Assembly: GCA_003154195.1 (NCBI GenBank) | Contig: PMCS01000029.1 | Location: 304,960 to 368,959, forward strand | Reading direction: 5' to 3' | From: Candidatus Omnitrophota bacterium | GTDB lineage: Bacteria; Omnitrophota; Gorgyraeia; Duberdicusellales; 4484-171 | Length of the DNA stretch: 64,000 bases | In this document: one piece after another, positions 15,633-63,895 of the stretch | How positions within the stretch are numbered: the first letter of the stretch is position 1 | Layout of the letters: each line of letters starts with the position of its first letter | The notes under the pieces: model-generated | What the model was told of the DNA's origin: nothing | The model's input: only the letters and a program-made list of their open reading frames with translations | Databases searched by the model: none | Program-made: the position numbers and the translations under genes

Positions 15633-15668
15633 GTTTCTTTCGATGGGATGGAGCAGGAAGGCGGGGAA

Positions 15669-17395: not shown

Positions 17396-17422
17396 GATCC
17401 CGCAGCCTGTGGCTTCGGGATC
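17396..17422 (+). promoter_or_regulatory. 7-bp perfect hairpin in the rimO 5' leader
   Basis: GATCCCG-cagcctgtggctt-CGGGATC. An extended -10 (TGCTATAAT) lies at 17354-17362. Confidence 0.3.
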
Positions 17423-17462
17423 AAGGAAAATATGCCTGAAAGGCAGATTTTTCTTGAATAAT

Positions 17463-18710: not shown

Positions 18711-18724
18711 ACCCCGGCTTTAAA

Positions 18725-18925: not shown

Positions 18926-19026
18926 TATTTCCAAAAAACAGGGGAAGTCCTCCGTTAGTTTTCTCTTGTTTGCCTGCCGCGATAGCGGTAAAATAATTAT
19001 CCCCGCGTATACGCGGGGATAATTAT

Positions 19027-19593: not shown

Positions 19594-19595
19594 AT

Positions 19596-19745
19596 ACATT
19601 TTTACCACGAAGGCACAAAGAACACGAAGACAAGATATGATTTTAAATCTTTTTATTTTTCTTAATGCTTCAGATGTTAAAAATCTTTATAGTTTTGGAT
19701 TTTTGATTTTCGTGGCTTAGTGCCTTGGTGGTAAAATCTTTATGG
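19596..19745. repeat. MITE-like element variant with terminal inverted repeats only (no UUCG core)
   Basis: Left arm ttttaccacgaaggcacaaagaacacgaag. The reverse complement of right arm cgtggcttagtgccttggtggtaaaatcttt is aaagattttaccaccaaggcactaagccacg. Confidence 0.65.
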
Positions 19746-19802
19746 TTTTGTTTTTATATTTTTCCGGGAATAGAAGAACTTTTAATCTAGGAGGTAAATT
19801 GA

Positions 19803-20297
19803 GTGGCGATGGATTCTGACAAAAAATTGGGAAACTTATCGTTTATCGATAAAACGAGCTTGGTTATTTCAACCGTTTTCGGTATCGGTTATACCCCTTT
19901 ATGTCCGGGCAGCGCTGCCTGCGTCGCCGCGGTTTTAGTTTTTCTTATCATTAAGAACCAAACATTTTTTTTAATTTTTACCGCCGCGAGCATTATTTTA
20001 GCTTTTGTTTTTCCCGGCCGCGCCGAAAAAATTTACGCGAAAAAAGACGATAAGCATATTGTTATCGATGATTTTTCCGGCATGCTTTTATCCTTTTTAT
20101 TTATTCCCCGCGATGTTCCTTTTGCCGTCGTCGGTTTTTTTCTTTTCCGGATGTTCGACATGCTGAAAATTCATCCGGCCGACCGAGTCGAAAAATACCC
20201 CGGCGCCATCGGCATCACCAGCGATGATTTGATCGCCGGTGCCTACGCCAATATTATCCTGCAAATCGTAAGGCATCTTCCCGGTGTTTCATCGTAA
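19803..20297 (+). CDS. pgpA: Phosphatidylglycerophosphatase A
   Basis: PgpA family (VFGIGYTPLCPGSAACVAAVLVFLI). AGGAGG lies 8 nt before the GTG at 19803, and an ATG sits at 19809. Confidence 0.8.
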   Translation: MAMDSDKKLGNLSFIDKTSLVISTVFGIGYTPLCPGSAACVAAVLVFLIIKNQTFFLIFTAASIILAFVFPGRAEKIYAKKDDKHIVIDDFSGMLLSFLFIPRDVPFAVVGFFLFRMFDMLKIHPADRVEKYPGAIGITSDDLIAGAYANIILQIVRHLPGVSS

Positions 20298-48274: not shown

Positions 48275-49954
48275 ATGAACCGCAGCAAATACACCGCTAT
48301 TTTTTTTATATCAATATTGGGTATCATCGGCTACGTTAATTCCTCCAACGGTAGATTTATCCTCGACGATAAGATGTTGGTGAGGGACAATGCGTATATA
48401 AGAAGTTTTTCCCGCTTTCCCAGTCTTTTTGCTTCCGATATCGGTTCCGGCGCAGGCTGCACCGCAGGCTACTTTCGTCCCATCCCGATGTTAAATTATA
48501 CACTGGACTATCATTTATGGAAGCTGGATCCCCGCGGGTATCATTTAAGCAATATTATCCTGCATATTCTTGTCGCGCTTTGCGCGTATTGGTTGGCTGA
48601 TATTATTTTTGCCGAAAATATTCTTTCAACGCTGGTGGGAATATTTTTTGTAATTCACCCTATCCAGACCGAAGCCGTGTCTTATATTTCTTCGCGTTCG
48701 GAATTATTGATGGGATTGTTTTCATTCCTTTGTTTTATTTTCTATCTAAAATATTCCGTAAGTGAACCGGCGAAACGGTTGTCAAGTATTGGTTTCTTTT
48801 CCCTCATGTCGCTAAGTTATATTATCGCTCTTCTTTCCAAAGAGACGGCCTTGGTTGTCCCCGTGTTGATTTTGCTTTATAGCTGCGCCTTCGGCAAAAA
48901 AACTAAAAAAAATGCCCTGGCGGGTTTATTGATCGCAGCTATTCTTTACGTAATTTTTAGATCAACCATTTTTCAATCCGTGCCTGTCCATATGGATAGA
49001 TTTGCTACCGTTGTCCCGAGAATTCCGGGAATATTTGTCGCCCTGGTCAAGTATCTTTCGCTGTTGTTATTTCCTTTCGGCACGCATATGAATTATGGAC
49101 TTAAGTTTTTTAGCTTTTTCGACCCGAATGTGCTTGCCGCTGCTATTATCGTCGCCGTTTTAATAATATATACGATAAAAAAAAGGAAGCTTTACCCGCT
49201 TTTATTTTTTTCAGCCGGATGGTTTTTCGTCACGCTGCTGCCCGCTTTAAATATTTATCCGCTCGATTCTTACATGGCGGAACGCTATCTATACCTGCCG
49301 TCTTGGGGATTTTTTTTAGCCCTTGCCTGGGGCTTGAGCCGTTTGTACAAAAATAATAAACTATGGTGTTTGGGCTTGAGCGCATTTTTAATCGTGTCTT
49401 ATTCATTCCTGACTATTAAACAAAATAACTACTGGAAAGATCCGATCAGCCTTTATGGGGCGACGCTTAGGCAGGAACCGGATAACTACCGTATTCATGA
49501 GGCGCTTGCCGGAGAATACTATCTTGAAGGAAGAGTGAATAAAGCCATAGAGGAGTATCTGAAAGCGATAGAAATCAATCCCGGTTATGGCCGGGCATAT
49601 GGTAATCTCGGTAATGTTTTTTGCAAACAGGGAAAAATTAAACAGGCGGTTTTTATGTACATGAAGGCAATAAATTCCCGTTCAGAAAAAGACGTTATCG
49701 GCGCGGCGTATTATAATCTGGGTAATTTATATCTTTCGATAGGAAAAGACAGCCAGGCAGTTGAATTATATAGAAAAGCCGTGGAAATCATCCCCGCCAT
49801 GGCCGCGGCGCATAATAATTTAGCCGTGCTTTATTATTATAACAAAGACTACGGGCTTGCGGTTAAGCATTATAACCAGGCAAGGAAGCTCGGCTATAAT
49901 GTTCATCCGGACTTTAAAAAGGCAATCGATAATTATGCGGGTACAACTCGTTAG
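48275..49954 (+). CDS. TMTC-like transmembrane glycosyltransferase with TPR repeats, paralog 5
   Basis: FILDDKMLVRDNAYIRSF and C-terminal TPRs. The ORF is open from 48200; the first Met before the TM segment is at 48275. Confidence 0.65.
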   Translation: MNRSKYTAIFFISILGIIGYVNSSNGRFILDDKMLVRDNAYIRSFSRFPSLFASDIGSGAGCTAGYFRPIPMLNYTLDYHLWKLDPRGYHLSNIILHILVALCAYWLADIIFAENILSTLVGIFFVIHPIQTEAVSYISSRSELLMGLFSFLCFIFYLKYSVSEPAKRLSSIGFFSLMSLSYIIALLSKETALVVPVLILLYSCAFGKKTKKNALAGLLIAAILYVIFRSTIFQSVPVHMDRFATVVPRIPGIFVALVKYLSLLLFPFGTHMNYGLKFFSFFDPNVLAAAIIVAVLIIYTIKKRKLYPLLFFSAGWFFVTLLPALNIYPLDSYMAERYLYLPSWGFFLALAWGLSRLYKNNKLWCLGLSAFLIVSYSFLTIKQNNYWKDPISLYGATLRQEPDNYRIHEALAGEYYLEGRVNKAIEEYLKAIEINPGYGRAYGNLGNVFCKQGKIKQAVFMYMKAINSRSEKDVIGAAYYNLGNLYLSIGKDSQAVELYRKAVEIIPAMAAAHNNLAVLYYYNKDYGLAVKHYNQARKLGYNVHPDFKKAIDNYAGTTR

Positions 49955-51323
49955 ATACCAGGATCTGGCAAATATAAACACGCGGTTGGCGCAAAGTTTG
50001 AATAAACACCAGGGCGTCTTACCTCCTTTGGGTATAGCCTATATTGCCTCTTCTCTCGAAAAAGCGAATCATGACGTTGATATCATTGATGCAATCGCGC
50101 TTAAAATGTCAAGAGATCAGGTGCGGCGCCGGATAAGAGAATTCCACCCGGATGTTGTCGGGATTACGGCAATGACCCCTACTTTTCCAGGCGCGAAAGA
50201 AGCCGCGTGGCTGGCGAAACAAGAAGGCGCGATAACCGTGATGGGCGGCGTGCATATGGCGATTTTTGCCGAAGAAACATTATCTTATGATTATGTTGAT
50301 TTTGGCGTAATCGGAGAAGCCGAGGAAACGATTGTTGAGCTGTGCGCCGCGATAGAAAATAAACAGCCATTCGAGCCGATCAAAGGGTTGGCTTTTAAAA
50401 AAGACGGCAAGATTATTGCCGGCCGGCCGAGAATCATAGAAGATTTAGATAGTTTGCCGATGCCGGCGTACCATCTTTTGCCGATGGATAAATATTCTTC
50501 CATCATCGGTTTGCACCCTGTTTCTACCATGATGGCTTCGCGCGGCTGCCCTTACCGGTGTGGTTTTTGTTATAAGACCCCTTCGGACGTCAAGCATCGT
50601 TATCGAAATTACGCGCAGGTTGCCGATGAGATGGAATTTCTTATCAAAAATTATCGCGTCAAAGAAATAATGTTCTATGATGACCTGATGATGCCGCAAT
50701 TTGTGGAAAACTTATGCAATGAGATTTTAAAACGTAAGTTAAAAATCGCCTGGCAGTCTCCCCAAAGAGTAAATTTAGTAACCTTCCCCTTGCTGAAGTT
50801 GATGAAAAAAGCGGGATGCCGTATGCTCAGGTATGGTATCGAGCAGGGCGATCCGGAAATGATGCGGCTGATTGAAAAAAATATTACTTTGCAAGGGGCA
50901 AAAGATGCGTTGCGCTGGACGCATCAGGCCGGCATAGAGACTTTTACTTATTATATTATCGGATATCCCGGCGAAAACGAAAGAACGGTTAGGGCGACGA
51001 TCAACCTTGCCAAGGAGTTGGATTCGCGTTATGCTATGTTCACTAAAGCGGTGCCTCTACCGGGAACAAAATTAATGGAATCGGCGGCTGGGAAGGGGCT
51101 GGTTGAACAAGATTATTGGCGTAAATTCATTTTGGGGCAAAATGTTAAACCGCTGCCTGATTTTATCCCGGGAACGGAAAAGTGGGTAGAGCGCGCGTAT
51201 AAAGAATTTTATTTGCGGCCGGCTAAAATAATAAAACAAATCGCGAGCATTCGCGGGTGGGAGGATATTAAAAAAAGTATCGCCGGTTTTATGGGGTTGG
51301 TAAATTTTAAAATGAGAGAATAA
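49935..51323 (+). CDS. B12-binding domain radical SAM enzyme (class B radical SAM family)
   Basis: N-terminal cobalamin-binding-like Rossmann domain (IAYIASSLEKANHDVDIIDA) and the radical SAM cluster motif CPYRCGFC. The ORF is open from 49857, so it overlaps the upstream gene. Confidence 0.75.
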   Translation: MRVQLVRYQDLANINTRLAQSLNKHQGVLPPLGIAYIASSLEKANHDVDIIDAIALKMSRDQVRRRIREFHPDVVGITAMTPTFPGAKEAAWLAKQEGAITVMGGVHMAIFAEETLSYDYVDFGVIGEAEETIVELCAAIENKQPFEPIKGLAFKKDGKIIAGRPRIIEDLDSLPMPAYHLLPMDKYSSIIGLHPVSTMMASRGCPYRCGFCYKTPSDVKHRYRNYAQVADEMEFLIKNYRVKEIMFYDDLMMPQFVENLCNEILKRKLKIAWQSPQRVNLVTFPLLKLMKKAGCRMLRYGIEQGDPEMMRLIEKNITLQGAKDALRWTHQAGIETFTYYIIGYPGENERTVRATINLAKELDSRYAMFTKAVPLPGTKLMESAAGKGLVEQDYWRKFILGQNVKPLPDFIPGTEKWVERAYKEFYLRPAKIIKQIASIRGWEDIKKSIAGFMGLVNFKMRE

Positions 51324-52204
51324 TGAGTATTGTAAAATATTTATTTTTATCTATACGGCCGAAGCAGTGGATCAAAAATTTGTTTATCATCTTACCGTTG
51401 ATCTTCGGCAGGAAACTTTTTTTTTACCCGGACAATGGCAGGGCTTTTTTAGCGCTTTTACTTTTTTCTTTAACCAGTAGCGCCGTCTATCTATTGAACG
51501 ATATTATTGATATTGAGAAAGATAAGTTCCATCCGGTTAAATCAAGCCGGCCGCTCGCTTCCGGAAAAATCAGCGTAAGAGATGCCGCTATTGTTTCAGC
51601 CCTATTGGGAATTGTTTCTACTTTTTTTTCTTTTGTCCTGGATATCGGCTTGGGATGGACAGTCATCGCCTATCTTGGCGTTAACCTTTTCTACTCTCTT
51701 TTTCTGAAGAATATAGTAATCATTGATATATTTTGCGTGGGTTGTTTTTTCCTTTTGCGTATCCTGGCCGGCGGTTTTGCCGCGCATGTTTTAATATCTC
51801 ACTGGATTATAATTATGACTTTTTTTCTCGCGCTTTTTTTAGGCTTTGTCAAAAGGCGCCAGGAGTTAATCATGCTGGAAGAAAACTCTGCTTATCATCG
51901 AACAGTTTTAAGCAAATATAATTCTTATTTTATCGACCAGTTGATAACAGTAATCGTTTCTTCAATTGTGGTGAGTCATATGTTGTATACCGTAGACGCC
52001 AGGACGGTAAAGGAATTCGGTAGCCGGCATTTGCTTTACAGCGTTCCTTTTGTTTATTATGGAATTTTTCGTTATCTTTATCTAATACATAAGGCTAAAA
52101 CCGACGGCGATCCTACGAATATTTTATTGTCGGATAGGCCGCTGCAGGCCGCGGTTATTTTTTGGGTTATTGTTTGTATCGCGGTGGTTTATTTTGGCCT
52201 CTAA
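51323..52204 (+). CDS. UbiA-family prenyltransferase, decaprenyl-phosphate phosphoribosyltransferase (DPPR synthase)-like
   Basis: RPKQWIKN...SAVYLLNDIIDIEKDKFHP...RPLASGKIS...RILAGGFAA...VKRRQEL closely parallels the mycobacterial Rv3806c-type sequence pattern, including the NDxxDxxxD motif. Confidence 0.7.
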   Translation: MSIVKYLFLSIRPKQWIKNLFIILPLIFGRKLFFYPDNGRAFLALLLFSLTSSAVYLLNDIIDIEKDKFHPVKSSRPLASGKISVRDAAIVSALLGIVSTFFSFVLDIGLGWTVIAYLGVNLFYSLFLKNIVIIDIFCVGCFFLLRILAGGFAAHVLISHWIIIMTFFLALFLGFVKRRQELIMLEENSAYHRTVLSKYNSYFIDQLITVIVSSIVVSHMLYTVDARTVKEFGSRHLLYSVPFVYYGIFRYLYLIHKAKTDGDPTNILLSDRPLQAAVIFWVIVCIAVVYFGL

Positions 52205-52385
52205 TTAAAATTATTTATCGAAACGGGCGCAGTTTTTTGATTTTGTCAAAGGCGGGGAATGGAGTATAATATACTGGAAGAGGCTAAAGGCGCTTCGCTT
52301 AATTCTCATGGGACATTAAGCGTGGTGGGTTTAGCTGAAAGAAATAATTGTGGCGGGCGACCGGGTTTCATTGAGGAGGCGAATA

Positions 52386-52973
52386 ATGAAAGGAAGAATT
52401 TTAAGAAGGAAATACCTGATTCATCCCTCGAGCCAGCTTAAATATATTGCCATGAGCATCTTGCCTACTTTATTGGTAAGCATTTTTGGGATATACTTTT
52501 TAGTCAGAAGCGGGGAGTTTATTTTTTTGATTGAGAAGGAGCAATTTTCTGCCGGAACGTCTTCTATCGATTTGACTATTCAGCAGCTGGAACGTGAAGC
52601 TTATCCTCGCGAAGCGGTGACCAAAATCAAAGTGTTAAAGAGTGACTTGCTTTCTTTGCGCAGCCTCTTAGATACTTCTTATTATGACGCCGTAAAAAAA
52701 TGGAACGATACAAAATCGGCGATGATACTTATTTTAGCCGCAGTTATCGTTTTTTCCGCGGTATTATCCCTTCTGTATTCCCATAGAATTGCCGGGCCGA
52801 TTTTCCGGTTGCGCCGGTCGATTGACATGCTCAGCCAGGGCCAGGATATACCGCCGGTTCACGTTCGCCGCTACGATGAATTTAAAGAATTGGCCGAATC
52901 GGTAGAACAATTGCGGGAAACCCTTAAAAAAAAGGGTATCCTGGGCTGGAGGGAAGATTCCAGCCATCGCTGA
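52386..52973 (+). CDS. Membrane protein with a HAMP linker domain and no obvious output domain
   Basis: Two TM helices flanking a periplasmic segment, then HAMP-like RIAGPIFRLRRSIDMLSQGQD. RBS GAGGAGG before the ATG at 52386. Confidence 0.5.
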   Translation: MKGRILRRKYLIHPSSQLKYIAMSILPTLLVSIFGIYFLVRSGEFIFLIEKEQFSAGTSSIDLTIQQLEREAYPREAVTKIKVLKSDLLSLRSLLDTSYYDAVKKWNDTKSAMILILAAVIVFSAVLSLLYSHRIAGPIFRLRRSIDMLSQGQDIPPVHVRRYDEFKELAESVEQLRETLKKKGILGWREDSSHR

Positions 52974-53011: not shown

Positions 53012-54517
53012 TTGCCGATGGGGAAGATAAAAGACGGCATATCGCATAATTTAGCTTTGTTTATCGCTGTTTGTTTTGTTGTCGCTTATTTTGCTTTTCT
53101 TCAATTTCTCTCGCCGGCTTTATACTGTCCCGATAGCTACTATCATATCAGCGTCTCCCGGTTTATAAAAGATTACGGCCCGCGCTACGATTTTCACTGG
53201 GCTCAAATTTCCACGTTTAAATATGCCTTCTCCGATAAGGACTTTTTATTCCACGTTTTAAGTATACCTTTTTTGTATCTTTCGAAAAATATAATTTTCG
53301 CGGGAAAATTGGCGGTGGTTTTCTTTAATATCTTTTTTGTATTTAGCTATGTTTTTATTTTGCGAAAATATGTCCAGCCTTTTTTAGCCGCCTGCATTTT
53401 AATCCTGCCGTTATCTTCTTATTTATTTTCCATTTACTTTCTATATCTCCGCAGCATCACTCTGGCTAATATTTTTATGATTTTTAGTATCTATTTTCTT
53501 ATCAATAAAAAGTGGATTACAGTTTTTGTCCTGGCTTTATTGTATCCGCTTGCCCATATTTCTTTTTTTACCGTAATAATTTTTGCTTTTATTTGCGAAA
53601 TAATAAGATATTTTTGCAAAAAAGAATTTTTTTCTCATAACCTCTATGCGGTTATCCTGGGCTCGGTTTTAGGATGTTTTATCCATCCCAATTGCCCCAA
53701 CAATTTACTATCGTTTTATCTCAACGGTTTTTTAGTGCCTTTGCATACGTTAAATAATACCGGTGCAGATTTAGCCAGGGAGCTTTTTTCTTCCCCGGCA
53801 CGTGCTATTTTTATCGACAATTTCGCCGTATTCTTCACCATCAATCTTGTTTTTTGGCTCTTGTTCTGCCTAAAGATAAACGTAAGTTTTTCGACTCTGG
53901 TATGGTGGGGATGCACGACGATCTATCTGGTATTGGGTTTTTGGTCAAACCGCTACTGGTATCAGGTAAACATTTTATTTTTTATTTTTTTTGCCTCGTT
54001 CATAAAAGACTGGGGTATAGAAAAGAACCGGCAAAATTTTTCAAAAAGAATAAATATTCTCCTTGTCGCGTATTTTGCGCTGATTTTTATAGCAAGCTCC
54101 GCGGGTTTTGAAGATTTAAAAATTTCTATGCGACACAAAATAGCAGACCATATTTATTATGAAGATATCAGCCGCTGGATGGAGAAAAATATCCCCGCCG
54201 GCGAGACAATTTACCATACGGCGGTAAGCGATTCCCCATTTTTTATATGCTTAAATCCCAAGAATAATTATTTCGTTGTTTTAGACCCCATTTACATGTA
54301 TTATCCTTACCCCAAAATTTATGCGCTTTATCGCGATTTAGGGAACGGGAAGGTGCGCGTTCCCGCCGAGGTTTTAAGAAAAGTGTTTAACGTTGGCTAC
54401 GGGTTCGTCAGGAAGGATAGGGCGTTATGCGGACAAATTAAAAACGATCACGTTAATTTCAAAATTCTTTACGAGAATGAGATAGGTATTGTTTTCAAAA
54501 TAAATAAAACTTGCTAA
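53012..54517 (+). CDS. Large polytopic membrane protein, putative GT-C-like glycosyltransferase
   Basis: 501 aa with at least 11 TM helices, a first-loop motif YCPDSYYH, and a C-terminal soluble domain. Confidence 0.35.
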   Translation: MPMGKIKDGISHNLALFIAVCFVVAYFAFLQFLSPALYCPDSYYHISVSRFIKDYGPRYDFHWAQISTFKYAFSDKDFLFHVLSIPFLYLSKNIIFAGKLAVVFFNIFFVFSYVFILRKYVQPFLAACILILPLSSYLFSIYFLYLRSITLANIFMIFSIYFLINKKWITVFVLALLYPLAHISFFTVIIFAFICEIIRYFCKKEFFSHNLYAVILGSVLGCFIHPNCPNNLLSFYLNGFLVPLHTLNNTGADLARELFSSPARAIFIDNFAVFFTINLVFWLLFCLKINVSFSTLVWWGCTTIYLVLGFWSNRYWYQVNILFFIFFASFIKDWGIEKNRQNFSKRINILLVAYFALIFIASSAGFEDLKISMRHKIADHIYYEDISRWMEKNIPAGETIYHTAVSDSPFFICLNPKNNYFVVLDPIYMYYPYPKIYALYRDLGNGKVRVPAEVLRKVFNVGYGFVRKDRALCGQIKNDHVNFKILYENEIGIVFKINKTC

Positions 54518-54625: not shown

Positions 54626-55510
54626 ATGGCAAGAAGGAGGCCTAACGGGGTGAAGATAAGCGTTGTTTTACCGGCTTATAACGAGGCGGAAAATTTAAAG
54701 AATATATTGCCCGGAATTCGTAAGACCATGGGCGATGCGGCAGAAATCATCGTAGTGGACGATGCGTCGAGCGACCAAACGGCGCTCGTTGCCAGGGACT
54801 TTGGCGCGACGGTGATAAAAAATCCCTATAATATGGGTAACGGCGCCGCGGTCAAGCGCGGTATCCGCAGGGCCGGCGGCGACATTATCGTGTTGATGGA
54901 TTCTGACGGCCAGCACCGGCCGCAAGATATACCCCTGCTTTTAAAAGAATTGGACGATTTCGATATGGTTATCGGCGCGAGAACCAATTCCCAACAGGTT
55001 TGGTGGCGTAAATCTGCCAACGCGCTTTATAACTGTTTAGCTTCCTATGTTACGGATGTCAAGATCGACGATTTAACTTCGGGATTCCGGGTATTTAAAA
55101 AAGCGCAGGCGCTGAAATTTCTTTATTTGCTGCCTAATACTTTTTCTTACCCCTCAACGTTAACGCTGGCATTTATTAAGGCTTCTTATCCGGTTAAATT
55201 TGTTCCCGTGAATGTTCTTGCTCGGAGCAGGGGGGAAAGCAAGATAAATCTGATTAAAGACGGTTCGCGTTTCCTTTCGATTATTATGAAAATCAGCGTT
55301 TTTTTCGCGCCGCTGAAAGTATTTTTACCGGTTTCTCTGCTTTTCTTTTTTACCGGCCTCGGCTATTATAGTTATACTTTTTTTCTTTTCCACCGTTTTA
55401 CCAACATGAGCGCTCTGCTTTTTACCGCTTCCATTATCATCTTTATGCTTGGGCTTATTTCCGAACAAGTCGCTTCCTTAAAGATGGAAAAGATAGACGA
55501 AGAATCTTAA
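54626..55510 (+). CDS. GT2 polyprenol-phosphate sugar synthase (ArnC/GtrB/DPM1-like) with C-terminal TM anchor
   Basis: ISVVLPAYNEAENL...VVDDASSD...DSDGQH (DxD) with C-terminal TM helices. AAGGAGG lies 11 nt before the GTG at 54650, which may be the true start. Confidence 0.8.
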   Translation: MARRRPNGVKISVVLPAYNEAENLKNILPGIRKTMGDAAEIIVVDDASSDQTALVARDFGATVIKNPYNMGNGAAVKRGIRRAGGDIIVLMDSDGQHRPQDIPLLLKELDDFDMVIGARTNSQQVWWRKSANALYNCLASYVTDVKIDDLTSGFRVFKKAQALKFLYLLPNTFSYPSTLTLAFIKASYPVKFVPVNVLARSRGESKINLIKDGSRFLSIIMKISVFFAPLKVFLPVSLLFFFTGLGYYSYTFFLFHRFTNMSALLFTASIIIFMLGLISEQVASLKMEKIDEES

Positions 55511-55573: not shown

Positions 55574-55672
55574 TCTCGCTCGCCTCTCGGCGTCCGCCTC
55601 GGCGAGCTTTCGGCCCTCGGCTTTGTCCACCTCGGCAAGTCTTTGGCGAGACGGGCCGAGAGGCGAGCGAGA
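55574..55672. repeat. GC-rich long palindrome with 18-bp terminal stem and internal CTCGGCNAG triplicate
   Basis: TCTCGCTCGCCTCTCGGC at 55574-55591 pairs perfectly with GCCGAGAGGCGAGCGAGA at 55655-55672. The interior holds ctcggcgagcttt / ctcggctttgtcc / ctcggcaagtcttt. Confidence 0.6.
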
Positions 55673-55711
55673 CGGGAAGCTGATGTCGATTCACTTAAAG
55701 AGGATATGGAG

Positions 55712-57205
55712 CAAAAAAAATATAAATTGCCCCTGGTGTTTTTATCGTTGATCTTCTGGGTTTTTATTTTTATCAATATCTCCGGGGATTTTGTTAACTT
55801 CGGCGGCGACAGCAGCCAATACATAATCCTGGCGGAAAGCCTTGCGAGAGGTACGGGGTATCACGCGATCAATCAGCCCGGTTCGCCGTCATTTTTCTAT
55901 TATCCGCCTGTTTTTCCTTTGATTATTTCCCCGATTATTTATTTTTTTGGAAGAAACTTCTATTTAATGTATTTATTGATTGCTGTTTTCGGTTATTTAA
56001 GCTTGATTTTTCTTTACTATTTTTTTAAAACGCAGGCAGGAAGGGATATCGCATTTTTTTCCACGGCCTATTTAGCGTTGAACAACATCTTTATTTTTTA
56101 TTCTTCCGGGGTGATTTTATCGGAAATACCGTATTTATTTTTTTCGTCTTTTGCCCTTTACGCCGCTCATAAATATTTTTACGCGCCGGTATGCTTCGGC
56201 AAAGAAGCGATTTTACTTATCCTGGGTTTAATTGCCGCCTATCTCACGCGTTATATCGGGATAGTTTTATTTCCGGCCACGGTTATTTTTTTGTTCTTCT
56301 CCTGGGATAAGCGAAAGGCAGTTTTTGTCGCTTCTTCTTTTATCGCTTTTTTTATTCTTTGGCAAACTGTTATTAAAGCCGGAGGCGCATCTTCGAGCCT
56401 CCACTATCAACAATTGCTTTTAATCGATCCCTACCGGCCGTTTTTGGGAAATATCTTAACCAACCCGGGTTTTCTTCTTCTCCGTTTTATTGAAGGGATT
56501 AACTATTACGCCTATCTCACCGGAAGCATTTTCCTGCCGGTTTTTTTAAAAGGTTTTTGGGCGCGCAGTTTCTATCCGCCGGCGGTGTTTATTGTGATTA
56601 TTTATGGTGTATGCTGCGATTTTTTCGGGAACCGCAGCCGCTTGCTTCCTTCCTATTTTATTTTTTATTTTCTCCTTACCGTTTTATGGCCGTTTAAGGA
56701 AGGCGTAAGATTTTTAGTGCCTATTTTACCGTTTTTTGTTTACTATATTTTTATTGCGCTTAAATCTTTGACGTCATTTTTAAAAAGCCAGATGATCGCC
56801 CGGTATATTTTTTACGTGCCGGCAATTTTTATTATTTTTTTTTCCAATACCCCGGCTTTCCCCATTAAGCAATACGCTTACCAGGATTTATCTAAGGAGC
56901 TTAAGAATTTTATCGCGCTGCACCTATGGATCAAAAACAATATTCCCGCAAACAGTATTATTGCCGGCCGCAAGCCTACCCTTACTTATTTTTATACCGG
57001 ACGGCAGGCTTTGGACTATCCTTTTACTCTCAACGATGAAGAAATGAAGCAATTCTTCGTCGACAACCATGTTGATTATGTGATCATCGACGAATTTTCT
57101 CAGGAAACCCGCAGCTATCTTCTGCCGTTTTTAAAAAAGTATAACCGTAGTTTCAAGCTAACGTATCGTGTAGGAAATACATTGTTGTTGGAAAAGATAA
57201 AATGA
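55712..57205 (+). CDS. GT39/ArnT-PMT-like polytopic glycosyltransferase
   Basis: GGDSSQYIILAESLARGTGYH first-loop motif and at least 11 TM helices. RBS AAGAGGA before the ATG at 55712. The track ORF starts at 55643, inside the palindrome. Confidence 0.55.
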   Translation, partial: QKKYKLPLVFLSLIFWVFIFINISGDFVNFGGDSSQYIILAESLARGTGYHAINQPGSPSFFYYPPVFPLIISPIIYFFGRNFYLMYLLIAVFGYLSLIFLYYFFKTQAGRDIAFFSTAYLALNNIFIFYSSGVILSEIPYLFFSSFALYAAHKYFYAPVCFGKEAILLILGLIAAYLTRYIGIVLFPATVIFLFFSWDKRKAVFVASSFIAFFILWQTVIKAGGASSSLHYQQLLLIDPYRPFLGNILTNPGFLLLRFIEGINYYAYLTGSIFLPVFLKGFWARSFYPPAVFIVIIYGVCCDFFGNRSRLLPSYFIFYFLLTVLWPFKEGVRFLVPILPFFVYYIFIALKSLTSFLKSQMIARYIFYVPAIFIIFFSNTPAFPIKQYAYQDLSKELKNFIALHLWIKNNIPANSIIAGRKPTLTYFYTGRQALDYPFTLNDEEMKQFFVDNHVDYVIIDEFSQETRSYLLPFLKKYNRSFKLTYRVGNTLLLEKIK

Positions 57206-57220: not shown

Positions 57221-59374
57221 ATGGCACAGCCGGTTTTTCTTTCGATAATAATCCCTGCTTTTGATGAGGAATGTCGTATTGCCGATTCCCTCAAGGCTCT
57301 TTTTGATTATCTGGGGCGCCGGCCGTTTACCTATGAGGTCATCGTCGTGGATGACGGGTCAAGGGATAATACCGTCAGTCTGGTTAATAATTTCGATAAA
57401 GATTATCATCTAGTTTTGCGTCTGATTGAAAACCATGCCAATCGCGGCAAAGGCTATTCAGTCCGGCAGGGGGTATTAATGAGCGCCGGCGAGTTCGTTA
57501 TCTTTACCGATGCCGATCTCTGCTGCCCGGTGGAAGAGATAGATAAATTAGTCGGTTTACTCCAGGAAGGCAACGATATCGTTATCGGCTCGCGGGCGGT
57601 CAAAGGCGCGAATTTAGTCATCCGGCAGCCATGGTGGCGAGAGGCCATGGGAAGGTGCTTTAACCTTTTAGTGCAAGCGTTTGTTCTTCCGGGAATTTGG
57701 GATACGCAATGCGGTTTTAAAGGGTTCCGGGGGAGCGTGGCCAGGGAGATTTTTTCTAAAGCGTTGATCGATCGTTTTGGTTTCGATGTGGAGATTCTTC
57801 TGTTCGCCCGGCAAAAGGGGTATAAGATTATTGAGGTCGGCGTGGCTTGGCGACACTCCTCTCCTTCCAAGGTCGCCGCTTTGCGCGATTCGCTGCGCAT
57901 GCTTATAGAGTTAGCGCGGATAAAAATGAAATTTAAAAAAGAAAATTTAAATACAAAGAATTTTTCCGGCATAATCTATAAATTATATATTTTTATCATT
58001 GCTTACATTTTACTGGCGGCGTTACCGTTGTTTTTGTACTTAAGCTATCGGCATTCGTTGGGAGCTTATCGGATGATGTGGCTTAATCTGTGGGGAGCAC
58101 ATTATAATTTTTTTCTGGAAACGCCTAAACCGCTGATGGCTTTTTTCGCCGGAGTTATCGGGCCGTCATATTTGTATTTATTCGCCTGTTTGTTTGGAGC
58201 GTTGCTTGTAGTATGCTGGGCGGAGATTTCTTTAGGCATTACGGGAAGTATATGGCACGGTGTGGTTGCTTCTTTCCTGTACTTTTTTACCAGCAAAGAA
58301 GTTTTGATTAATTTCCTTCTGCCGGTTTCCTGGGGTATATTCTATATACCTTTGATATGGTGGTCGGTAACCTTGTTGATACTCCGGCGTTACCGGCCGG
58401 CGGCGGCCATAATGTTTTTATCCGGTTTGTTGAGGCCGGAAAGCTGGCTTTTCGGCATTTTAATGCTCGTCTGGTTCCGGCTGCGCCGCATACCTTTACG
58501 GCCGGTATATTGGCTCGCGGCTTTTGCCCCTTTTATCTGGATGTTGTTTGACTGGCGCATCACCGGTAACCTTTTCGCTTCAGCGTTGATCACGAAACAA
58601 TATGGTGCTTTAACCGGTTTTCCGATTACCACCTTCACGTCGTTTTGGCCGATGCTTATAATGATTACGCCGTATTTATATAACCCGCCGATTTTATTAT
58701 GCGGTTCAATCGGTTTGGGCACCTATGTTTTTCAGAGTATCCGACGCAAGCATCTTTCTGATTACGATATTATTTTTATTTTATCCGCCGCTACCTTAAT
58801 CGGGTATTGGTTGGTAACTATCGGACAGAATATTGTGATATTTCCCAGATTTTTGGTTTTTCCCTACAGTGCGATTTATTTGTTCGCCGGTTTGATGCCG
58901 GCTTTTTTATCGCGGCGGTATATTTTAGGATATTTATTGCTTGCCTTATTATTTATCGCCGCCCGGCCCGAGAAGCTTTTAATCAACGCTGCTCGTAAAT
59001 ACGGCAACGCGCAATCGTCGGCTGATGCCATGCGCGAGGCCGGTGATTTTCTTGAGGGGTATTTTAAACGCCGCCCTTCGCGCGGTAAAATTTTATGCGA
59101 AGCCGGCGCGGATTATTTATCGCTGCGTTTCGGCGAAGATTTTTCCCGCCGGATTATTTTTTTTCGTGAAATCGGCAGCGCGGCGGAATTTGATAAAACG
59201 CAAGTTGGCCTTGCCATATATCAATATTGGAGCGAAATGCCGGTCCACGGCAAATTTTTATTCCTCGGCGGCGGCCGGCGCGTTGTTTTAAATAACCGGT
59301 ATATTTTTACGCCGGTTTTTATCAGCCGGAACCGCTTGGCGATCGTGTATGAAATAAACCGCAAAAGTTTTTAG
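57221..59374 (+). CDS. Fusion protein: N-terminal GT2 polyprenol-phosphate sugar synthase (DPM1-like) + C-terminal ~480-aa polytopic membrane domain
   Basis: LSIIIPAFDEE...VVDDGSRDNT...FTDADL (DxD), then a TM domain whose conserved block MWLNLWGAHYNFFLETPKPLMAFF is paralogous to the protein at 62453-63895. Confidence 0.7.
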   Translation: MAQPVFLSIIIPAFDEECRIADSLKALFDYLGRRPFTYEVIVVDDGSRDNTVSLVNNFDKDYHLVLRLIENHANRGKGYSVRQGVLMSAGEFVIFTDADLCCPVEEIDKLVGLLQEGNDIVIGSRAVKGANLVIRQPWWREAMGRCFNLLVQAFVLPGIWDTQCGFKGFRGSVAREIFSKALIDRFGFDVEILLFARQKGYKIIEVGVAWRHSSPSKVAALRDSLRMLIELARIKMKFKKENLNTKNFSGIIYKLYIFIIAYILLAALPLFLYLSYRHSLGAYRMMWLNLWGAHYNFFLETPKPLMAFFAGVIGPSYLYLFACLFGALLVVCWAEISLGITGSIWHGVVASFLYFFTSKEVLINFLLPVSWGIFYIPLIWWSVTLLILRRYRPAAAIMFLSGLLRPESWLFGILMLVWFRLRRIPLRPVYWLAAFAPFIWMLFDWRITGNLFASALITKQYGALTGFPITTFTSFWPMLIMITPYLYNPPILLCGSIGLGTYVFQSIRRKHLSDYDIIFILSAATLIGYWLVTIGQNIVIFPRFLVFPYSAIYLFAGLMPAFLSRRYILGYLLLALLFIAARPEKLLINAARKYGNAQSSADAMREAGDFLEGYFKRRPSRGKILCEAGADYLSLRFGEDFSRRIIFFREIGSAAEFDKTQVGLAIYQYWSEMPVHGKFLFLGGGRRVVLNNRYIFTPVFISRNRLAIVYEINRKSF

Positions 59375-59491
59375 TTACTTTTTATTTGAACCGCGGAAAT
59401 CCGCCGAATTTATCCGGTGCGCCTGCCCGCGGCAGGTAGGCAGCTGGAATTTTTAAAAAAATTAAAGAAATAGCGGCATTTTTTGGGTTAA

Positions 59492-61096
59492 TTGATTGTT
59501 ATGGCTATATTAGAAAATTTAACTAAACCGGTTTCCCGCAAAACGCAAGGGGCGATCATACTTGGCCTGATCCTTATGCTGTCGTTTCTCGCCAGGCTTC
59601 CTTTTTTAAATGTCCCCTTAGACGGCGACAGCGGAGTTTTTACGGCAATCGGCCGGCTGATTGCCCGGCATGGCCTTCTGCTTTACCGCGATCTTTTCGA
59701 AATTAAACCTCCGGGAATATATTTTTTGTTTGCCGCCTTATTCAAGGTCATTGATTTAGACCTGTTTGGTGTTAACGTGTTCACCGCTTGCTGGAACACG
59801 GCGAATGTATTTTTGGTCTACCTTCTGGCGAAGCGCTTATTTAATAAAAAAACTGCTTTAATCGCGGCATTTTTTTACGGTTTGTTTTCCTCGAGCCCTG
59901 TAATCTCTGGCACTTTTCCTCTCACCGAAAATTTTATGATAACCTTTACAGTGATGGGAGCTTTTTTTGTAATTAAATCAATACAAGAAAACCGCAATTT
60001 TTATTTTCTCGCCGGATTATTTTACGGTGTTGGTTTTCTTTTTAAGCAGATTGCCGCCATGGAGATGTTTGCCGCCGTCATTTTGCTATTTCTGGCATCA
60101 TTCAGGCCGGGGGGGAAAGTAGAAATAAAATATTTTTTACGCGGTTTATTATTTTACTCTGGCGGTCTTATCCTCATCTTCGGCATAAGCGCTTTATATT
60201 TTTTTATAAAAGGCGCCTACAATGATTTTATCTTCTGCGCGCTTATTTATAATTTTAAGTATATAAGCGTAGGCTATCGCAGCCTTAGCAGCTATTGGCT
60301 TCATTTCTTTAATGCTAATTTTGCTATTTTTCGCGCTACGGCGCTATTATGGATAACAAGCGCGATATTTATGGCAGAGACATTTAAGGATATTTTTACG
60401 AAACGCCCGGCCGCCGGAGAAAAACAGGCGGTTCTAAACCGTATTTTTTTGTTAGTTTGGATTATTTTTGCGTTTATAGGCGTTTGTTTAAGCGGCCAAT
60501 TTATCGTCCACTACTATATTGTTTTAATGCCCCCTTTTAGCATAGCTTGCGCCGCGGCTTTAACCCGGCCGTGGGCCGCGCGGCGTAATAGTTTTTATAA
60601 TGCCGTGATGTATATTTTAACGGCCGTATGCGTTATCTACGCGATAGCCGTCCATTATCGGTATTATTTTACCTATAAACCTGAGGAGATTGCGATTAAT
60701 GTTTTTGGGGATTCGCCTTTTAATGAGGCGCGTCAGGTGGGATTATATTTACGCCGGCACACTACCCCCGGCGATTATATTTATAATTGGTCGAAAGAGC
60801 CGGAGATATTCTTTTATACCCGGGCTAAGCCGACAAGCCGTTATCTTTGGTTGTCCCACTACACTGTTTATTATCGCCCCGGCGCGGTAGACGAAGTGGC
60901 TCATGCCTTGGCCGAGCACCCGCCAAAATATATCGTCATCGATACGCATATTGGCCACTGGATACATGAGCCGATATTTAAACCGATCAAAGATTTTTTT
61001 GACCGGAATAAATATATTCCGGAAAAGGATTTTTCCGTAGTGCGAAACGGCAAATTCCAATATAATTTTTTAGTTTCCCGGCGTATAGAAAGGTAA
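59492..61096 (+). CDS. GT39/ArnT-PMT-like polytopic glycosyltransferase
   Basis: LDGDSGVFTAIGRLIARHGLLLYRDLFEIKPPGIYFL matches the D-x-G-x-Y-A-x-I-G-R-x-M-x...-KPPL-x-YWL first-loop pattern of ArnT/PMT_2-like enzymes; about 12 TM helices. Confidence 0.55.
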   Translation: MIVMAILENLTKPVSRKTQGAIILGLILMLSFLARLPFLNVPLDGDSGVFTAIGRLIARHGLLLYRDLFEIKPPGIYFLFAALFKVIDLDLFGVNVFTACWNTANVFLVYLLAKRLFNKKTALIAAFFYGLFSSSPVISGTFPLTENFMITFTVMGAFFVIKSIQENRNFYFLAGLFYGVGFLFKQIAAMEMFAAVILLFLASFRPGGKVEIKYFLRGLLFYSGGLILIFGISALYFFIKGAYNDFIFCALIYNFKYISVGYRSLSSYWLHFFNANFAIFRATALLWITSAIFMAETFKDIFTKRPAAGEKQAVLNRIFLLVWIIFAFIGVCLSGQFIVHYYIVLMPPFSIACAAALTRPWAARRNSFYNAVMYILTAVCVIYAIAVHYRYYFTYKPEEIAINVFGDSPFNEARQVGLYLRRHTTPGDYIYNWSKEPEIFFYTRAKPTSRYLWLSHYTVYYRPGAVDEVAHALAEHPPKYIVIDTHIGHWIHEPIFKPIKDFFDRNKYIPEKDFSVVRNGKFQYNFLVSRRIER

Positions 61097-61261
61097 ATAA
61101 CCTGGATAACTGCCTATACGCCGGGGAAGTCTAAGGTAGAGCCGGGATGGCCGCTTTCAGCGGCTGACTTGCCCGTTTATAAGGAACTTAGCTTTGGCAT
61201 CCATGGTTTTACCGTAAGGAGGGTTTAATCTTTGTCAATTTGCCGCAGGCAAATTAGCGGA

Positions 61262-61298
61262 TAAATTCACCTCGCGGTAAACTGCGAGGTGAATTTAT
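61262..61298 (+). promoter_or_regulatory. 13-bp perfect hairpin enclosing the Shine-Dalgarno of the GT4 gene
   Basis: AAATTCACCTCGC-ggtaaact-GCGAGGTGAATTT. GAGGTG lies in the 3' arm, 8 nt before the ATG at 61299. Confidence 0.5.
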
Positions 61299-62417
61299 AT
61301 GAAAGTGCTTTTTATCAGCCGCAGTTTTCCTCCCTTAAGGGGGGGGATGGAAAAAGTAGCCCATAATCTTTATACCGATTTTTCGGCTAAGGCAAGCGTT
61401 ACGCTTATAAAATGGAGTGGTTCAAAGAAATGGCTTGTGTTCGTTTTGCCGGTTTTTTTTATGAAAAGCGCATGGTATCTTTTGTGTAAAAAAATCGACG
61501 TAATCTATTTATGCGACGGTTTTCTTTCTCTCTTGATACCGTTTTTAAGAATTTTTAAAAAACCGATTATAGTTACCGTTCACGGTTTGGATATAACCTA
61601 CAAAAATAAATCTTATCAGGCGATTATCCCCAAAAAAATAGCCTTAGCGGACAGGGTAGTTTGCGTAAGCCGCGCGACTGCCGGCGAGTGTTTAAAAAGG
61701 AATATCCCGGAGGAAAAGATTTGTATCGTGCCTAACGGTATAAAAGATGAGTTTTATCTGGCCGGGGGTAGGGGAAATTTAAAAGCCGCGCTTGAACGCA
61801 AATTAAAAATAAATATCGGTAACAAAAAAGTGCTGCTCTCCGTGGGGAGGCTTATCGAGCGTAAAGGGATCCATTGGTTTATTAAAGAAATCGTGCCTAA
61901 GATTAAAGCGGATTGCGCCGATTTCGTTTATTTGGTCGCCGGATGCGGCAAAATGGCCGAAGATATCCGGGCGATTATTAAAAATAATGCTTTAGAGAAT
62001 TGGGTGGTTATGGTTGGAGAAGTAAGCGACGAGGAGCTGAAAATTTTATACAACGCGGCTGATATCTTTGTGATGCCTAATATTCCCGTCGCGGGCGATT
62101 TTGAAGGGTTTGGCATTGTGATTCTGGAAGCAGCGAGCTGTGGCCTGGCGGTGGTAGCTTCTGACATGGAAGGCATCAGGGACGCGCTTGGGGATGGAGA
62201 CTGGGGGGTTTTAATTGAGCCGCTTAACGCCGCTAAATTTAGCGGGGAGATTTTGAATTTAATGAGAGATGATGATAGAAGAGCCAACTTGGCTACGCGC
62301 GCCCGGGCCGGCGTAATTGATGTTTTTAATTGGCCGGGCGTCGCGCAAAAATATTTGGATATTTTTAATGAGACTTCGTCGATAATGAAACTTGCCCGGT
62401 ACTCCGGGCCTAGTTGA
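61299..62417 (+). CDS. GT4-family glycosyltransferase (GT-B fold)
   Basis: EX7E-type motif FVMPNIPVAGDFEGFGIVILEAASCGLAVVAS. The last ~17 codons (SSIMKLARYSGPS) are translated from the AATGAGACTT repeat, so the annotated C-terminus is repeat-derived. Confidence 0.75.
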   Translation: MKVLFISRSFPPLRGGMEKVAHNLYTDFSAKASVTLIKWSGSKKWLVFVLPVFFMKSAWYLLCKKIDVIYLCDGFLSLLIPFLRIFKKPIIVTVHGLDITYKNKSYQAIIPKKIALADRVVCVSRATAGECLKRNIPEEKICIVPNGIKDEFYLAGGRGNLKAALERKLKINIGNKKVLLSVGRLIERKGIHWFIKEIVPKIKADCADFVYLVAGCGKMAEDIRAIIKNNALENWVVMVGEVSDEELKILYNAADIFVMPNIPVAGDFEGFGIVILEAASCGLAVVASDMEGIRDALGDGDWGVLIEPLNAAKFSGEILNLMRDDDRRANLATRARAGVIDVFNWPGVAQKYLDIFNETSSIMKLARYSGPS

Positions 62418-62440
62418 ATTATCCCGGAGGGGATAGCCGG
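62367..62440. repeat. AATGAGACTTC-family repeat copy overlapping the GT4 3' end
   Basis: aatgagacttcgtcgataatgaaacttgcccggtactccgggcctagttgaatta, then a cccggagggg hairpin. Confidence 0.65.
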
Positions 62441-62452
62441 ATTAATAAACCG

Positions 62453-63895
62453 ATGACAAAAAATAAATTTTTCCCAACGGGCATAATCTTCGCAGGGTCA
62501 TTTCTTTTCTTCTTTTTCTTGCCCCATATTTTTTATTTGCGCTTTAAGCCGTCGTGGGAACCGTTTATCATGATGTGGCTTAATGTTTGGGGGGCGCACT
62601 ATAACTTTTTGATTGAAACCCCTAAGCCTTTGATGGCGTTTTTAAGCGCAATCTTGCCGCAAAAGTTTTTATATCTTTTTCTGCCTTTGTTCTGCGCTTT
62701 ATGGTGCACGGTGTTAGTTGAGTTGTCAAAAGAGATAACCGGCAAGCGTATCTTCGGGTTATTTGCTGTATTTTTTTGTTTTTTTTGTAACGCGGAGATA
62801 ATCGCCGCCGTTTTTTCCGGAGAGTGGACGGTTATTTATCCGCCTCTCGTGTTTTTCGCTCTTTTATTTTTTATGAGGCAGAAGTATTTTTTGTCTTCGC
62901 TGATTATGCTTTTTGCCGGTTTACTCCGGCCGGAAAGTTGGTTGTACAGCGCATTTTTTCTAATCTGGATGAAATCGCAGAAGAAACACCTGAAGCCGTT
63001 ATATTTTATATCCTTGCTCGCGCCTTTTTTATGGGCGTTGTTTGATTGGCGGCTTTCCGGAGATTGGTTTTATTCTTATCACGCGACGGCAAGGCATGCC
63101 GCGGTCAGCGGTTTTCCCGTGACGACCTTTTTTAATTTTTGGCCGGCCGTCGCCAGGAATACATTTTTACTCTATAATCGGGTAATCTTAAGTTGTGGGA
63201 TAATCTTTGTTTTGATGGATTTATTGAGAAGCTATAAAAAGCAAGGAGAAAAGCATGGTAATTTAATGATGGTTATGGTGATTTTGCCTTTTTTGTTTTA
63301 CTGGGCGCTATCGTTAAAAGGTTCAATCGTCGTTTATCCCCGTTTTTTTGCTTTTTCCTATGCCGTAATATATTTTTGCGCGGTATTGCTTCCCTGGTTG
63401 ATTTTTAAGGAACGTAAAATTTTGACCATATTTTTTCTGGTATTGCTGGCGTTGGTTTCTTTTTCCCGGGATAATCTGGGTTTTGCTGTTACCAAAAGAA
63501 TTTATGATGATAAAATAGATAAAACCTCGCGAGAGTTGGGTGATTTTCTGCAAGGCTATCTGGCTAACCATAAAGTAACCGGTAGGGTATTGGCGGGGAA
63601 TAACGCGTGGTATTTTTCTTTGCGGCTGGGCGAAGAATTTTCTCAAAAAATCATCATGTTTCGCGAGGCCGGGACATATCCGGAGTTGTTAAAAGAAATC
63701 CCGCCGGGTTTGGCCGTATATCAGAAATGGGGTGAGGCGGGAGCCGGCGAAAAGTTTGATTTCTTGCGGCGGCCGCGAAAGTTTGTCGTTAAAAATAAAT
63801 ATATTTTTAACCCCCTATTCGTGACCGGCGACAAATGCGGCATAGTTTATGAAGTTTTTCTAAAGGCAGCGGATAATAAACTTGCTTCTCAATGA
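62453..63895 (+). CDS. Polytopic membrane protein paralogous to the C-terminal domain of the GT2 fusion (putative lipid-linked sugar utilising transferase)
   Basis: MMWLNVWGAHYNFLIETPKPLMAFLSAIL and LLRPESWLY / LAPFLWALFDWRLSGDW blocks are shared with 57221-59374. The ORF is open from 62414. Confidence 0.5.
   Translation: MTKNKFFPTGIIFAGSFLFFFFLPHIFYLRFKPSWEPFIMMWLNVWGAHYNFLIETPKPLMAFLSAILPQKFLYLFLPLFCALWCTVLVELSKEITGKRIFGLFAVFFCFFCNAEIIAAVFSGEWTVIYPPLVFFALLFFMRQKYFLSSLIMLFAGLLRPESWLYSAFFLIWMKSQKKHLKPLYFISLLAPFLWALFDWRLSGDWFYSYHATARHAAVSGFPVTTFFNFWPAVARNTFLLYNRVILSCGIIFVLMDLLRSYKKQGEKHGNLMMVMVILPFLFYWALSLKGSIVVYPRFFAFSYAVIYFCAVLLPWLIFKERKILTIFFLVLLALVSFSRDNLGFAVTKRIYDDKIDKTSRELGDFLQGYLANHKVTGRVLAGNNAWYFSLRLGEEFSQKIIMFREAGTYPELLKEIPPGLAVYQKWGEAGAGEKFDFLRRPRKFVVKNKYIFNPLFVTGDKCGIVYEVFLKAADNKLASQ

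Follow-up and report, generated by a model that had tools for sequence, protein, structure and literature searches.

What does a protein do that joins a glycosyltransferase of family GT2 to a large membrane domain? This question is raised by a gene in a window of 64,000 nucleotides (nt), i.e., positions 304,960-368,959 of the forward strand of contig PMCS01000029.1 from a Candidatus Omnitrophota bacterium (assembly GCA_003154195.1), which is the whole stretch of DNA analyzed here. The gene at 57221-59374 (+) encodes 717 amino acids (aa) and was read in an earlier note as a DPM1-like polyprenol-phosphate sugar synthase fused to a membrane domain of about 480 aa. With a probability of about 0.7, the protein is a bifunctional enzyme of an extracytoplasmic glycosylation pathway of the three-component type, in which a synthase, a flippase and a glycosyltransferase of GT-C fold act in succession.

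First, the fusion itself was examined. The gene is a single uninterrupted open reading frame (ORF) with an ATG start, and Pfam placed a GT2 domain (PF00535) at residues 8-178 (E 2.3e-29), so that the joining of a GT2 and a ~480-aa membrane domain in one polypeptide was borne out; no Pfam model matched the C-terminal 478 aa. The junction reads LIELARIK(235)-M(236)-KFKKENLNTKNFS-TM1, where TM1 denotes the first transmembrane (TM) helix. The DNA at the junction is rich in A and contains homopolymer runs, which called for a check on artefacts, and the earlier note had named a frameshift or assembly artefact as the finding that would overturn it. The identical 717-aa protein was found on 11 contigs. 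In six of these, which differ in sample and assembler (two WOOD18 samples of ENA, the NCBI metagenome-assembled genome (MAG) GCA_003154645.1, JGI 3300038473, ENA ERZ27250262 and Logan SRR6960558), all 2154 nt of the fusion gene were identical, the A-rich junction included. Thus, an artefact of assembly, frameshift or mis-assembly was ruled out. With zero nucleotide differences, the contigs carrying the fusion represent one clonal population, and the fusion is genuine yet lineage-restricted. Its origin may still be visible: M236, followed by a basic tail and TM1, may go back to the start codon of a once separate gene, as read from the sequence. No Shine-Dalgarno-like sequence precedes this internal ATG.

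Second, the N-terminal half was classified. Similarity to GT2 relatives extends to residue ~235, with a DAD motif at residues 97-99 (57509-57517) and DTQCGFK at residues 161-167. The seven best sequence matches in the PDB were Pyrococcus dolichol-phosphate mannose synthase (DPMS; 4.5e-19), GtrB, and ArnC from three organisms, and the structure of the GT2 half was likewise nearest to DPMS, GtrB and ArnC. The domain combines these nearest neighbors with a GT-A fold and the two motifs expected of its class, DxD and (D)xxxGF(K/R). All residues invariant in 17 close relatives are kept, both motifs included, the sole exception being a conservative exchange of N15 to D. The PDB matches and the retained motifs support the predicted identity as a DPM1-like polyprenol-phosphate sugar synthase. 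Since the scores against NCBIfam equivalog models were far below their cutoffs (best 54.8 bits vs. a cutoff of 500), no specific sugar could be assigned. The JGI annotation of the fusion protein, 'dolichyl-phosphate beta-glucosyltransferase', ignores two thirds of the protein. With regard to subtype, the fused GT2 is Alg5-like and lacks TM helices of its own.

Of the proteins related to the fused GT2, the best 120 were 40-49% identical to it, and the domain was N-terminal in 107 of 119. Recurrent fusions joined it to further components of pathways for lipid-linked monosaccharides, namely to GtrA (e.g., P0073, ~405 aa), to PF03706 (P0102, P0105), to methyltransferases and to a second GT2. The last class, tandem GT2-GT2 proteins of ~500 aa (P0005-P0062 and similar), represents the most abundant close relatives; they carry two DPM1-like domains without a TM segment, and the named examples are annotated as Chloroflexi, Chloroflexota or Dehalococcoidia.

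Third, the membrane domain was assigned. While a word-index search returned three homologs, an exhaustive HMMER search over 1.84 billion cluster representatives with a profile built from these three was needed to reveal the family: 738 proteins matched at E <= 1e-3, and 47 of them at E <= 1e-30. Among the matches listed, the members are nearly all free-standing proteins of 450-520 aa, two of them with C-terminal TPR repeats. None of 43 aligned members had a significant Pfam match, and searches with the single sequence and with the 43-sequence profile against Pfam, NCBIfam and PDB sequences yielded nothing above threshold, the profile search of the PDB sequences being empty. In NCBIfam, only NF047440 and NF046093 (families described as 'putative glycosyltransferase / glycopolymer formation') gave marginal matches. 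The PMT and PMT_2 models (PF02366, PF13231; CAZy GT39/GT83) did not match any of the 43 members at E <= 0.1; two remote relatives showed PMT_2 matches below the cutoff (E 5.8e-5 and 4.4e-4), and remote relatives also gave sub-threshold matches to DUF2079. Alignment of the family profile with the window's own PMT_2/GT-C paralogs by hhalign reached a probability of 18%, which is too weak to count as evidence.

As the earlier note had remarked, the membrane domain does not obviously match a named family; the structural search suggested there provided the assignment. An AlphaFold2 model based on the 43-sequence alignment was of high confidence (mean predicted local distance difference test (pLDDT) 92.6, predicted TM-score 0.92). 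In a Foldseek search of the PDB, the top 30 matches were all GT-C enzymes, namely STT3, ALG12, DPY19, PglB, ALG9, AglB, AftA, ALG6, ALG3 and Emb (E down to 6.5e-6, probability 1.00), and the modeled core superposes on the solved GT-C structures. ArnT is also among the structural neighbors, and Pmt and ALG9/ALG12 are the nearest. Judged by this model, the membrane domain belongs to the glycosyltransferases of GT-C fold, within a sequence family for which no curated model exists. It differs from Pmt1/2/4 (GT39) and ALG9/ALG12 (GT22), to which its sequence is ~10% identical, by the absence of a PMT/PMT_2 hidden Markov model (HMM) match and of a MIR domain, by the ETPKPL motif in external loop 1 and by a different C-terminal alpha/beta domain.

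The fusion fixes the orientation of this domain: as the GT2 is cytoplasmic, TM1 has to cross the membrane outward. Given 11 TM helices, this orientation places the 136-aa C-terminal domain outside the cell. Lysine and arginine account for 11 of 31 residues in the inside loops and 4 of 95 in the outside loops, a clear positive-inside pattern. The catalytic residue of GT-C enzymes has its hallmark position in the first external loop, which is long and carries a conserved acid there (see also the description of GT-C enzymes in PMC11127046). Here, external loop 1 (residues 278-314) contains three short helices and a conserved acid, in agreement with GT-C topology. In the 43-member alignment, numbered as in the fusion protein, position 300 is E or D in 41 members, K303 is present in 38 and P304 in all. 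R405, P406 and W409 are invariant, and position 407 is always acidic. W440 is found in 43/43, D444 in 42/43 and G449 in 39/43, while R543, in an outer loop, is found in 41/43. All of these conserved residues are found either in external loop 1 or where TM5-7 and TM9-10 reach the outer face. E300/K303, R405-P-E407, W409, D444 and R543 would form one active-site pocket, as deduced from the topology of the model only.

The earlier note had also claimed that the membrane domain has a free-standing paralog in the window, and pairwise BLASTP confirmed this: in the alignment of fusion residues 269-716 with residues 37-485 of the paralog, 38% of the positions were identical and 58% positive, with three gaps (E = 1e-102), a similarity that by far exceeds what chance or composition would give. 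The four motif blocks quoted in that note are present in both proteins, as MMWLN(L/V)WGAHYNF, ETPKPLMAF, GLLRPESWL and LFDWR(IT/LS)G(N/D)(L/W)F. The paralog has no Pfam match and matches NF047440, a family of putative glycosyltransferases, weakly (E 6.5e-4). Its ORF reaches upstream to a TTG at 62414 (62414-63895, 493 aa), which makes the ATG at 62453 the internal M14. The idea that the two copies arose by recent tandem duplication was rejected, as they were sisters in 78 of 500 neighbor-joining bootstraps only (16%); the free copy was slightly nearer to P0126 and P0127 from other organisms. By sequence comparison, the two copies in the window are old paralogs. The GT4 gene preceding the paralog recurs in the same order before a family member at locus L021, and the two GT4 proteins are 49% identical (E 1e-127). 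The paralog would be a second transferase of the same family that works with a conserved GT4 partner, and its donor would probably come from the fused GT2 or from the separate GtrB-like GT2 encoded at 54626. An 80-kb ENA scaffold (L001) carries the same locus and extends beyond the window end; its copy of the paralog (15194-16741) contains a scaffolding gap (X residues) and a short duplicated segment and is unreliable, while the copy in the window is intact.

The bifunctional enzyme would act in a pathway of three steps. First, the GT2 domain would load polyprenyl phosphate at the inner leaflet with a hexose taken from a nucleotide sugar, in the manner of DPMS, GtrB and ArnC, a chemistry suggested by its fold and motifs. 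Second, the lipid-linked sugar would be flipped to the outer leaflet, most likely by a separate protein. The best candidate is the putative flippase of family PF03706 encoded four genes downstream, for which its conservation and the fusions of PF03706 to GT2 domains in P0102 and P0105 speak. Third, the GT-C domain would use the flipped polyprenyl-phosphate-sugar to glycosylate a periplasmic acceptor, as its modeled fold, topology and conserved residues suggest; the acceptor may be a glycan, a glycolipid or a protein. That the donor of the GT-C domain is linked to polyprenyl phosphate is indicated indirectly by the GT2 fusion and by neighborhoods containing GT2 genes. The fusion would then have merged, in one lineage, a synthase gene and the gene of its consumer. 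It would secure a 1:1 stoichiometry and co-localization, and it would anchor a GT2 having no TM helices. This reading is carried by an intact GT2 of the DPMS/GtrB/ArnC type, a GT-C fold with an outward-facing conserved site, the covalent link between the two and a conserved cluster of GT2, GT-C and PF03706 genes. The earlier note had proposed coupling of synthesis to the immediate use or the flipping of the lipid-linked sugar. Of these options, use by a GT-C transferase is favored, whereas flipping by the membrane domain is disfavored, all of its structural neighbors being transferases or subunits derived from them.

The conserved cluster was observed in the closer subclade, where family members are associated with GT2 genes, the usual neighbor in other genomes being a relative of the GT2 at 54626. 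At locus L027, the stop codon of such a GT2 gene (66% identity) overlaps the ATG of the family member. At L024 and L025, two GT2 genes come next after the family member, the first of them with GT2_TM_C; behind them lie two B12-radical SAM genes and a PMT_2 gene. Locus L026 is syntenic with the window: an ortholog of the membrane protein at 53012 (51%) lies directly upstream of the 54626-like GT2 (66%), as in the window, followed by a short GT2 and a relative of the GT-C at 55643 (36%), with a family member and a PF03706 gene later. The PF03706 gene of L026 (14094-14864) is 43% identical to its counterpart in L001 (20294-21076). Pairing is not the rule, a matter on which the earlier note had asked for a check: the fusion was found nowhere else among the matches listed or in a metagenome scan, and GT2 genes do not universally adjoin family members. 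The distant member P0003 (L016 417-4286) has a T2SSE/PilT-like ATPase upstream and an overlapping 405-aa protein downstream, a setting that differs greatly from the glycosylation clusters around the closer members.

Several observations weigh against the bifunctional enzyme. Around the distant members, namely P0002, P0003 and those at eight loci from WOR-3, from Gemmatimonadota and from MAGs without classification, no homologs of the window's GT2s, UbiA, GT4 or PMT_2 were present within ~10 kb. The fused GT2, Alg5-like and free of TM helices, differs in subtype from the 54626-like GT2 that adjoins family members elsewhere. The fusion was found in one clonal population only; in the exhaustive search, no N-terminal extension of ~240 aa was present among the best 150 of the 738 family matches, and in a metagenome scan no fused ortholog was detected, the sole related GT2 there stopping right after the GT2 domain. 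Thus, selection for the fused state is not demonstrated. In addition, since the GT2 and GT-C active sites lie on opposite faces of the membrane, the fusion alone cannot channel the intermediate.

The same restricted distribution speaks for a recent neutral read-through, in which a stop codon between two adjacent genes was lost and the halves work as before without coupling. The fusion is confined to a single clonal population, no fused homolog appeared among those 150 best matches or in the metagenome scan, Met236 with the basic N-tail and TM1 resembles the start of free-standing homologs, and the overlap of GT2 and family-member genes in related genomes would make a one-step fusion easy. Against this speaks that the modeled linker is a continuous, confidently predicted helix and not disordered; pLDDT falls below 50 at hinge residues 243-245. 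Moreover, GT2 and GT-C were joined independently elsewhere. P0104 (791 aa, NCBI), a single case, has the same order of an Alg5-like GT2 (45% identical) followed by a recognizable PMT/PMT_2 GT-C. P0111, a GT2 fused to an unannotated membrane domain, was also considered as a relative of the GT-C family and proved unrelated (hhalign probability 0.8%). On the sequences compared, the 'synthase + GT-C' architecture evolved on two or more occasions, each time with another GT-C partner, which supports a functional link and makes the fusion described here a variant of an existing pattern. Together with the common fusions to GtrA and PF03706, this indicates that such fusions are tolerated and probably favored. 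Neutral read-through is considered unlikely, and it would bear only on the meaning of the link and not on the function of the halves.

If the link has a meaning, the position of the two active sites raises the possibility that the GT-C fold domain itself is the translocator (flippase or scramblase) of the polyprenyl-phosphate-sugar made by the GT2, with or without transferase activity. As the domains act on opposite faces, a fusion would gain most if the membrane domain translocated the sugar lipid, and the scanned parts of the window yielded no gene of GtrA type. However, besides the nature of the structural neighbors, the conserved residues cluster at the outer face and not along a transmembrane path, the conserved periplasmic domain, at times with TPR repeats, fits acceptor binding, and a conserved PF03706 flippase-like gene is present both in the window's locus and in the syntenic one. 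A translocator is therefore regarded as improbable. The same low odds are given to a self-sufficient module, in which the GT-C domain or its interface with the GT2 would carry the sugar lipid across, so that synthesis, flipping and transfer would be combined in one polypeptide.

It is very improbable that the membrane domain derives from a GT-C but is catalytically inert and, as an anchor or scaffold, only tethers and activates the GT2, for which PIG-U/GAB1 of the glycosylphosphatidylinositol transamidase and the membrane domain of Ppm1 would be precedents: the family is overwhelmingly free-standing without a GT2, yet keeps R405, E407, D444, the acidic position 300 and R543 at the outer face, charged residues that an anchor would not need. 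Least probable of all is an oligosaccharyltransferase of the PglB/AglB/STT3 type (GT66) acting on polyprenyl-diphosphate-linked glycans, with the fused GT2 serving another step such as building the glycan, as neither a match to the STT3 HMM nor a WWDYG motif was found.

Comparison with known proteins places the bifunctional enzyme between familiar systems. The earlier note had called it an inverted analog of mycobacterial Ppm1. The likeness holds insofar as a DPM1-like GT2 is joined to a polytopic membrane domain in inverted order; it ends at the membrane domain, which is of GT-C fold, is not Lnt-like and has no Pfam match. The membrane domain of mycobacterial Ppm1 (Rv2051c) is an apolipoprotein N-acyltransferase of the Lnt type (CN-hydrolase) and no consumer of the sugar donor. 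The fusions represented by P0104 share domain order and GT2 subtype with the protein described here, but their GT-C is recognizable as PMT/PMT_2 and here no model matches, and the two are independent events; to our knowledge, such GT2-PMT_2 proteins are uncharacterized.

The logic of synthase, flippase and GT-C transferase is the same as in GtrA/GtrB/GtrC, ArnC/ArnEF/ArnT, CsbB/GtcA/YfhO, PpgS/Rv3779 and the pentofuranose systems (PMC11127046). Compared with these three-component systems, synthase and GT-C are here one polypeptide, the GT-C is without a Pfam or NCBIfam model, and the PF03706 protein is the sole flippase candidate. A close precedent is GT136 (ORF12), a recently founded GT-C family that was invisible to sequence models and was recognized through AlphaFold, with 11 TM helices, a periplasmic C-terminal domain and a lipid-linked monosaccharide donor; the donor is made by a synthase of UbiA type, and the C-terminal domain is a beta-rich carbohydrate-binding module (PMC11127046). 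Compared by description only, the membrane domain studied here resembles GT136 in the 11 TM helices and the periplasmic C-terminal domain and differs from it in the type of synthase and in the carbohydrate-binding module. A literature search returned no description of GT2-GT-C fusions or of this GT-C family, which is no proof that none exists.

The family comprises about 740 cluster representatives in WOR-3, Gemmatimonadota and other uncultured bacteria, and its members are labeled 'hypothetical' by annotation pipelines. For them, the fusion is a natural 'Rosetta stone' that would tie the family to extracytoplasmic glycosylation dependent on polyprenyl-phosphate-sugars and fixes its membrane topology. 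With a donor-making site inside and a donor-using site outside in one polypeptide, the protein would be handy for studying how sugar lipids cross the membrane and whether synthase and transferase are physically coupled. We know of no identified flippase of dolichyl-phosphate-mannose (Dol-P-Man) or dolichyl-phosphate-glucose (Dol-P-Glc), for which a self-sufficient module, if it proved true, would be a tractable model. The practical weight is modest, the pathway logic being familiar, the organism uncultured and the fusion confined to one lineage.

The fusion lies in a dense array of glycosylation genes (32987-63895, continuing in L001) with at least ten genes for GT-C-type membrane glycosyltransferases (Table 1). 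Among them are PMT_2 genes, some of which encode TPR repeats at the C-terminus; the product of 42491-44191 is also similar to STT3, and 44369-46063 matches PTPS_related. Two genes for GT2 polyprenyl-phosphate-sugar synthases and one GT4 gene are interspersed.

Table 1. Coordinates of the fusion gene, its domains and motifs, and of neighboring genes. Positions refer to the window unless a scaffold is named; residues are those of the fusion protein.
Feature	Position	Strand	Remarks
GT2 catalytic domain	57221-57925	+	residues 1-235; GT-A fold, cytoplasmic, DPM1/GtrB/ArnC type
Fusion linker MKFKKENLNT	57926-57955	+	residues 236-245; end of long helix 220-241 and 3-residue hinge ahead of TM1
GT-C fold transmembrane core (model)	57956-58963	+	residues 246-581; 11 TM helices, N-terminus in, C-terminus out; long external loop 1 at residues 278-314
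ETPKPL motif	58118-58135	+	residues 300-305, external loop 1 after TM1; E300 is a candidate catalytic or donor-binding acid
RPESW motif	58433-58447	+	residues 405-409, outer end of TM5/TM6
W440...D444-W-R...G449 motif	58538-58567	+	outer end of TM7
Extracytoplasmic C-terminal alpha/beta domain and stop codon	58964-59374	+	residues 582-717
B12-binding radical SAM gene	49857-51323	+	directly before the UbiA-family gene
UbiA-family gene	51323-52204	+	NF008977 decaprenyl-phosphate phosphoribosyltransferase, 253.9 bits vs. cutoff 234
HAMP-domain membrane protein	52350-52973	+	207 aa; flanked by the UbiA gene and the membrane protein at 53012
Polytopic membrane protein	53012-54517	+	501 aa; no Pfam or NCBIfam match
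Second polyprenyl-phosphate sugar synthase	54626-55510	+	GtrB/AglJ/PpgS-like GT2 with C-terminal TM helices; PF00535 E 2.6e-29; AglJ 7.8e-33; PpgS 1.1e-25
PMT-like GT-C	55643-57205	+	immediately upstream of the fusion; PF02366 and PF13231
PMT_2/ArnT-like GT-C	59492-61096	+	immediately downstream of the fusion; PF13231 E 5.4e-15; source name '4-amino-4-deoxy-L-arabinose transferase-like glycosyltransferase'
GT4 glycosyltransferase	61299-62417	+	immediately upstream of the paralog; Pfam GT4/GT1 domains
Free-standing GT-C paralog	62453-63895	+	480 aa from the ATG at 62453; family motifs all intact
PF03706 (LPG_synthase_TM, 'flippase-like')	L001 20294-21076		four genes downstream of the paralog, just beyond the window

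The UbiA-family gene and the adjoining B12-radical SAM gene suggest, by analogy, a second route to a lipid-linked donor, which would be polyprenyl-phosphoribose or a pentofuranose as in PMC11127046 and would feed some of the neighboring GT-C enzymes. The 53012-54517 protein probably represents another unannotated GT-C-like family. Beyond the window, L001 encodes two large membrane proteins after the paralog (16738-18441, 567 aa; 18438-20087, 549 aa) whose starts and stops overlap and for which no Pfam match is on record; they are likely further GT-C-like enzymes. An IS200-type transposase gene also lies in this downstream part of L001. GtrA (PF04138) was not found among the window ORFs scanned, which covered parts of the window only, and a flippase of the GtcA or ArnEF type was likewise not seen.

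The window, L001, L003 and L005 carry an intact copy of the PMT-like gene that directly precedes the fusion; it is split into two ORFs in L002 (3206-4670, 340+137 aa) and L004 (3206-4836, 371+137 aa). As the latter belong to the same population, the split is either strain-level pseudogenization or an indel polymorphism.

The remainder of the window is ordinary chromosome, with genes for PNPase, FtsK and XseA and an AsmA/YhdP-like gene, whose sequence suggests a diderm cell. At 15896-17149 (-), a full-length bacterial serpin is encoded (PF00079, E 5.9e-116), a protein that is rare in bacteria and unrelated to the fusion.

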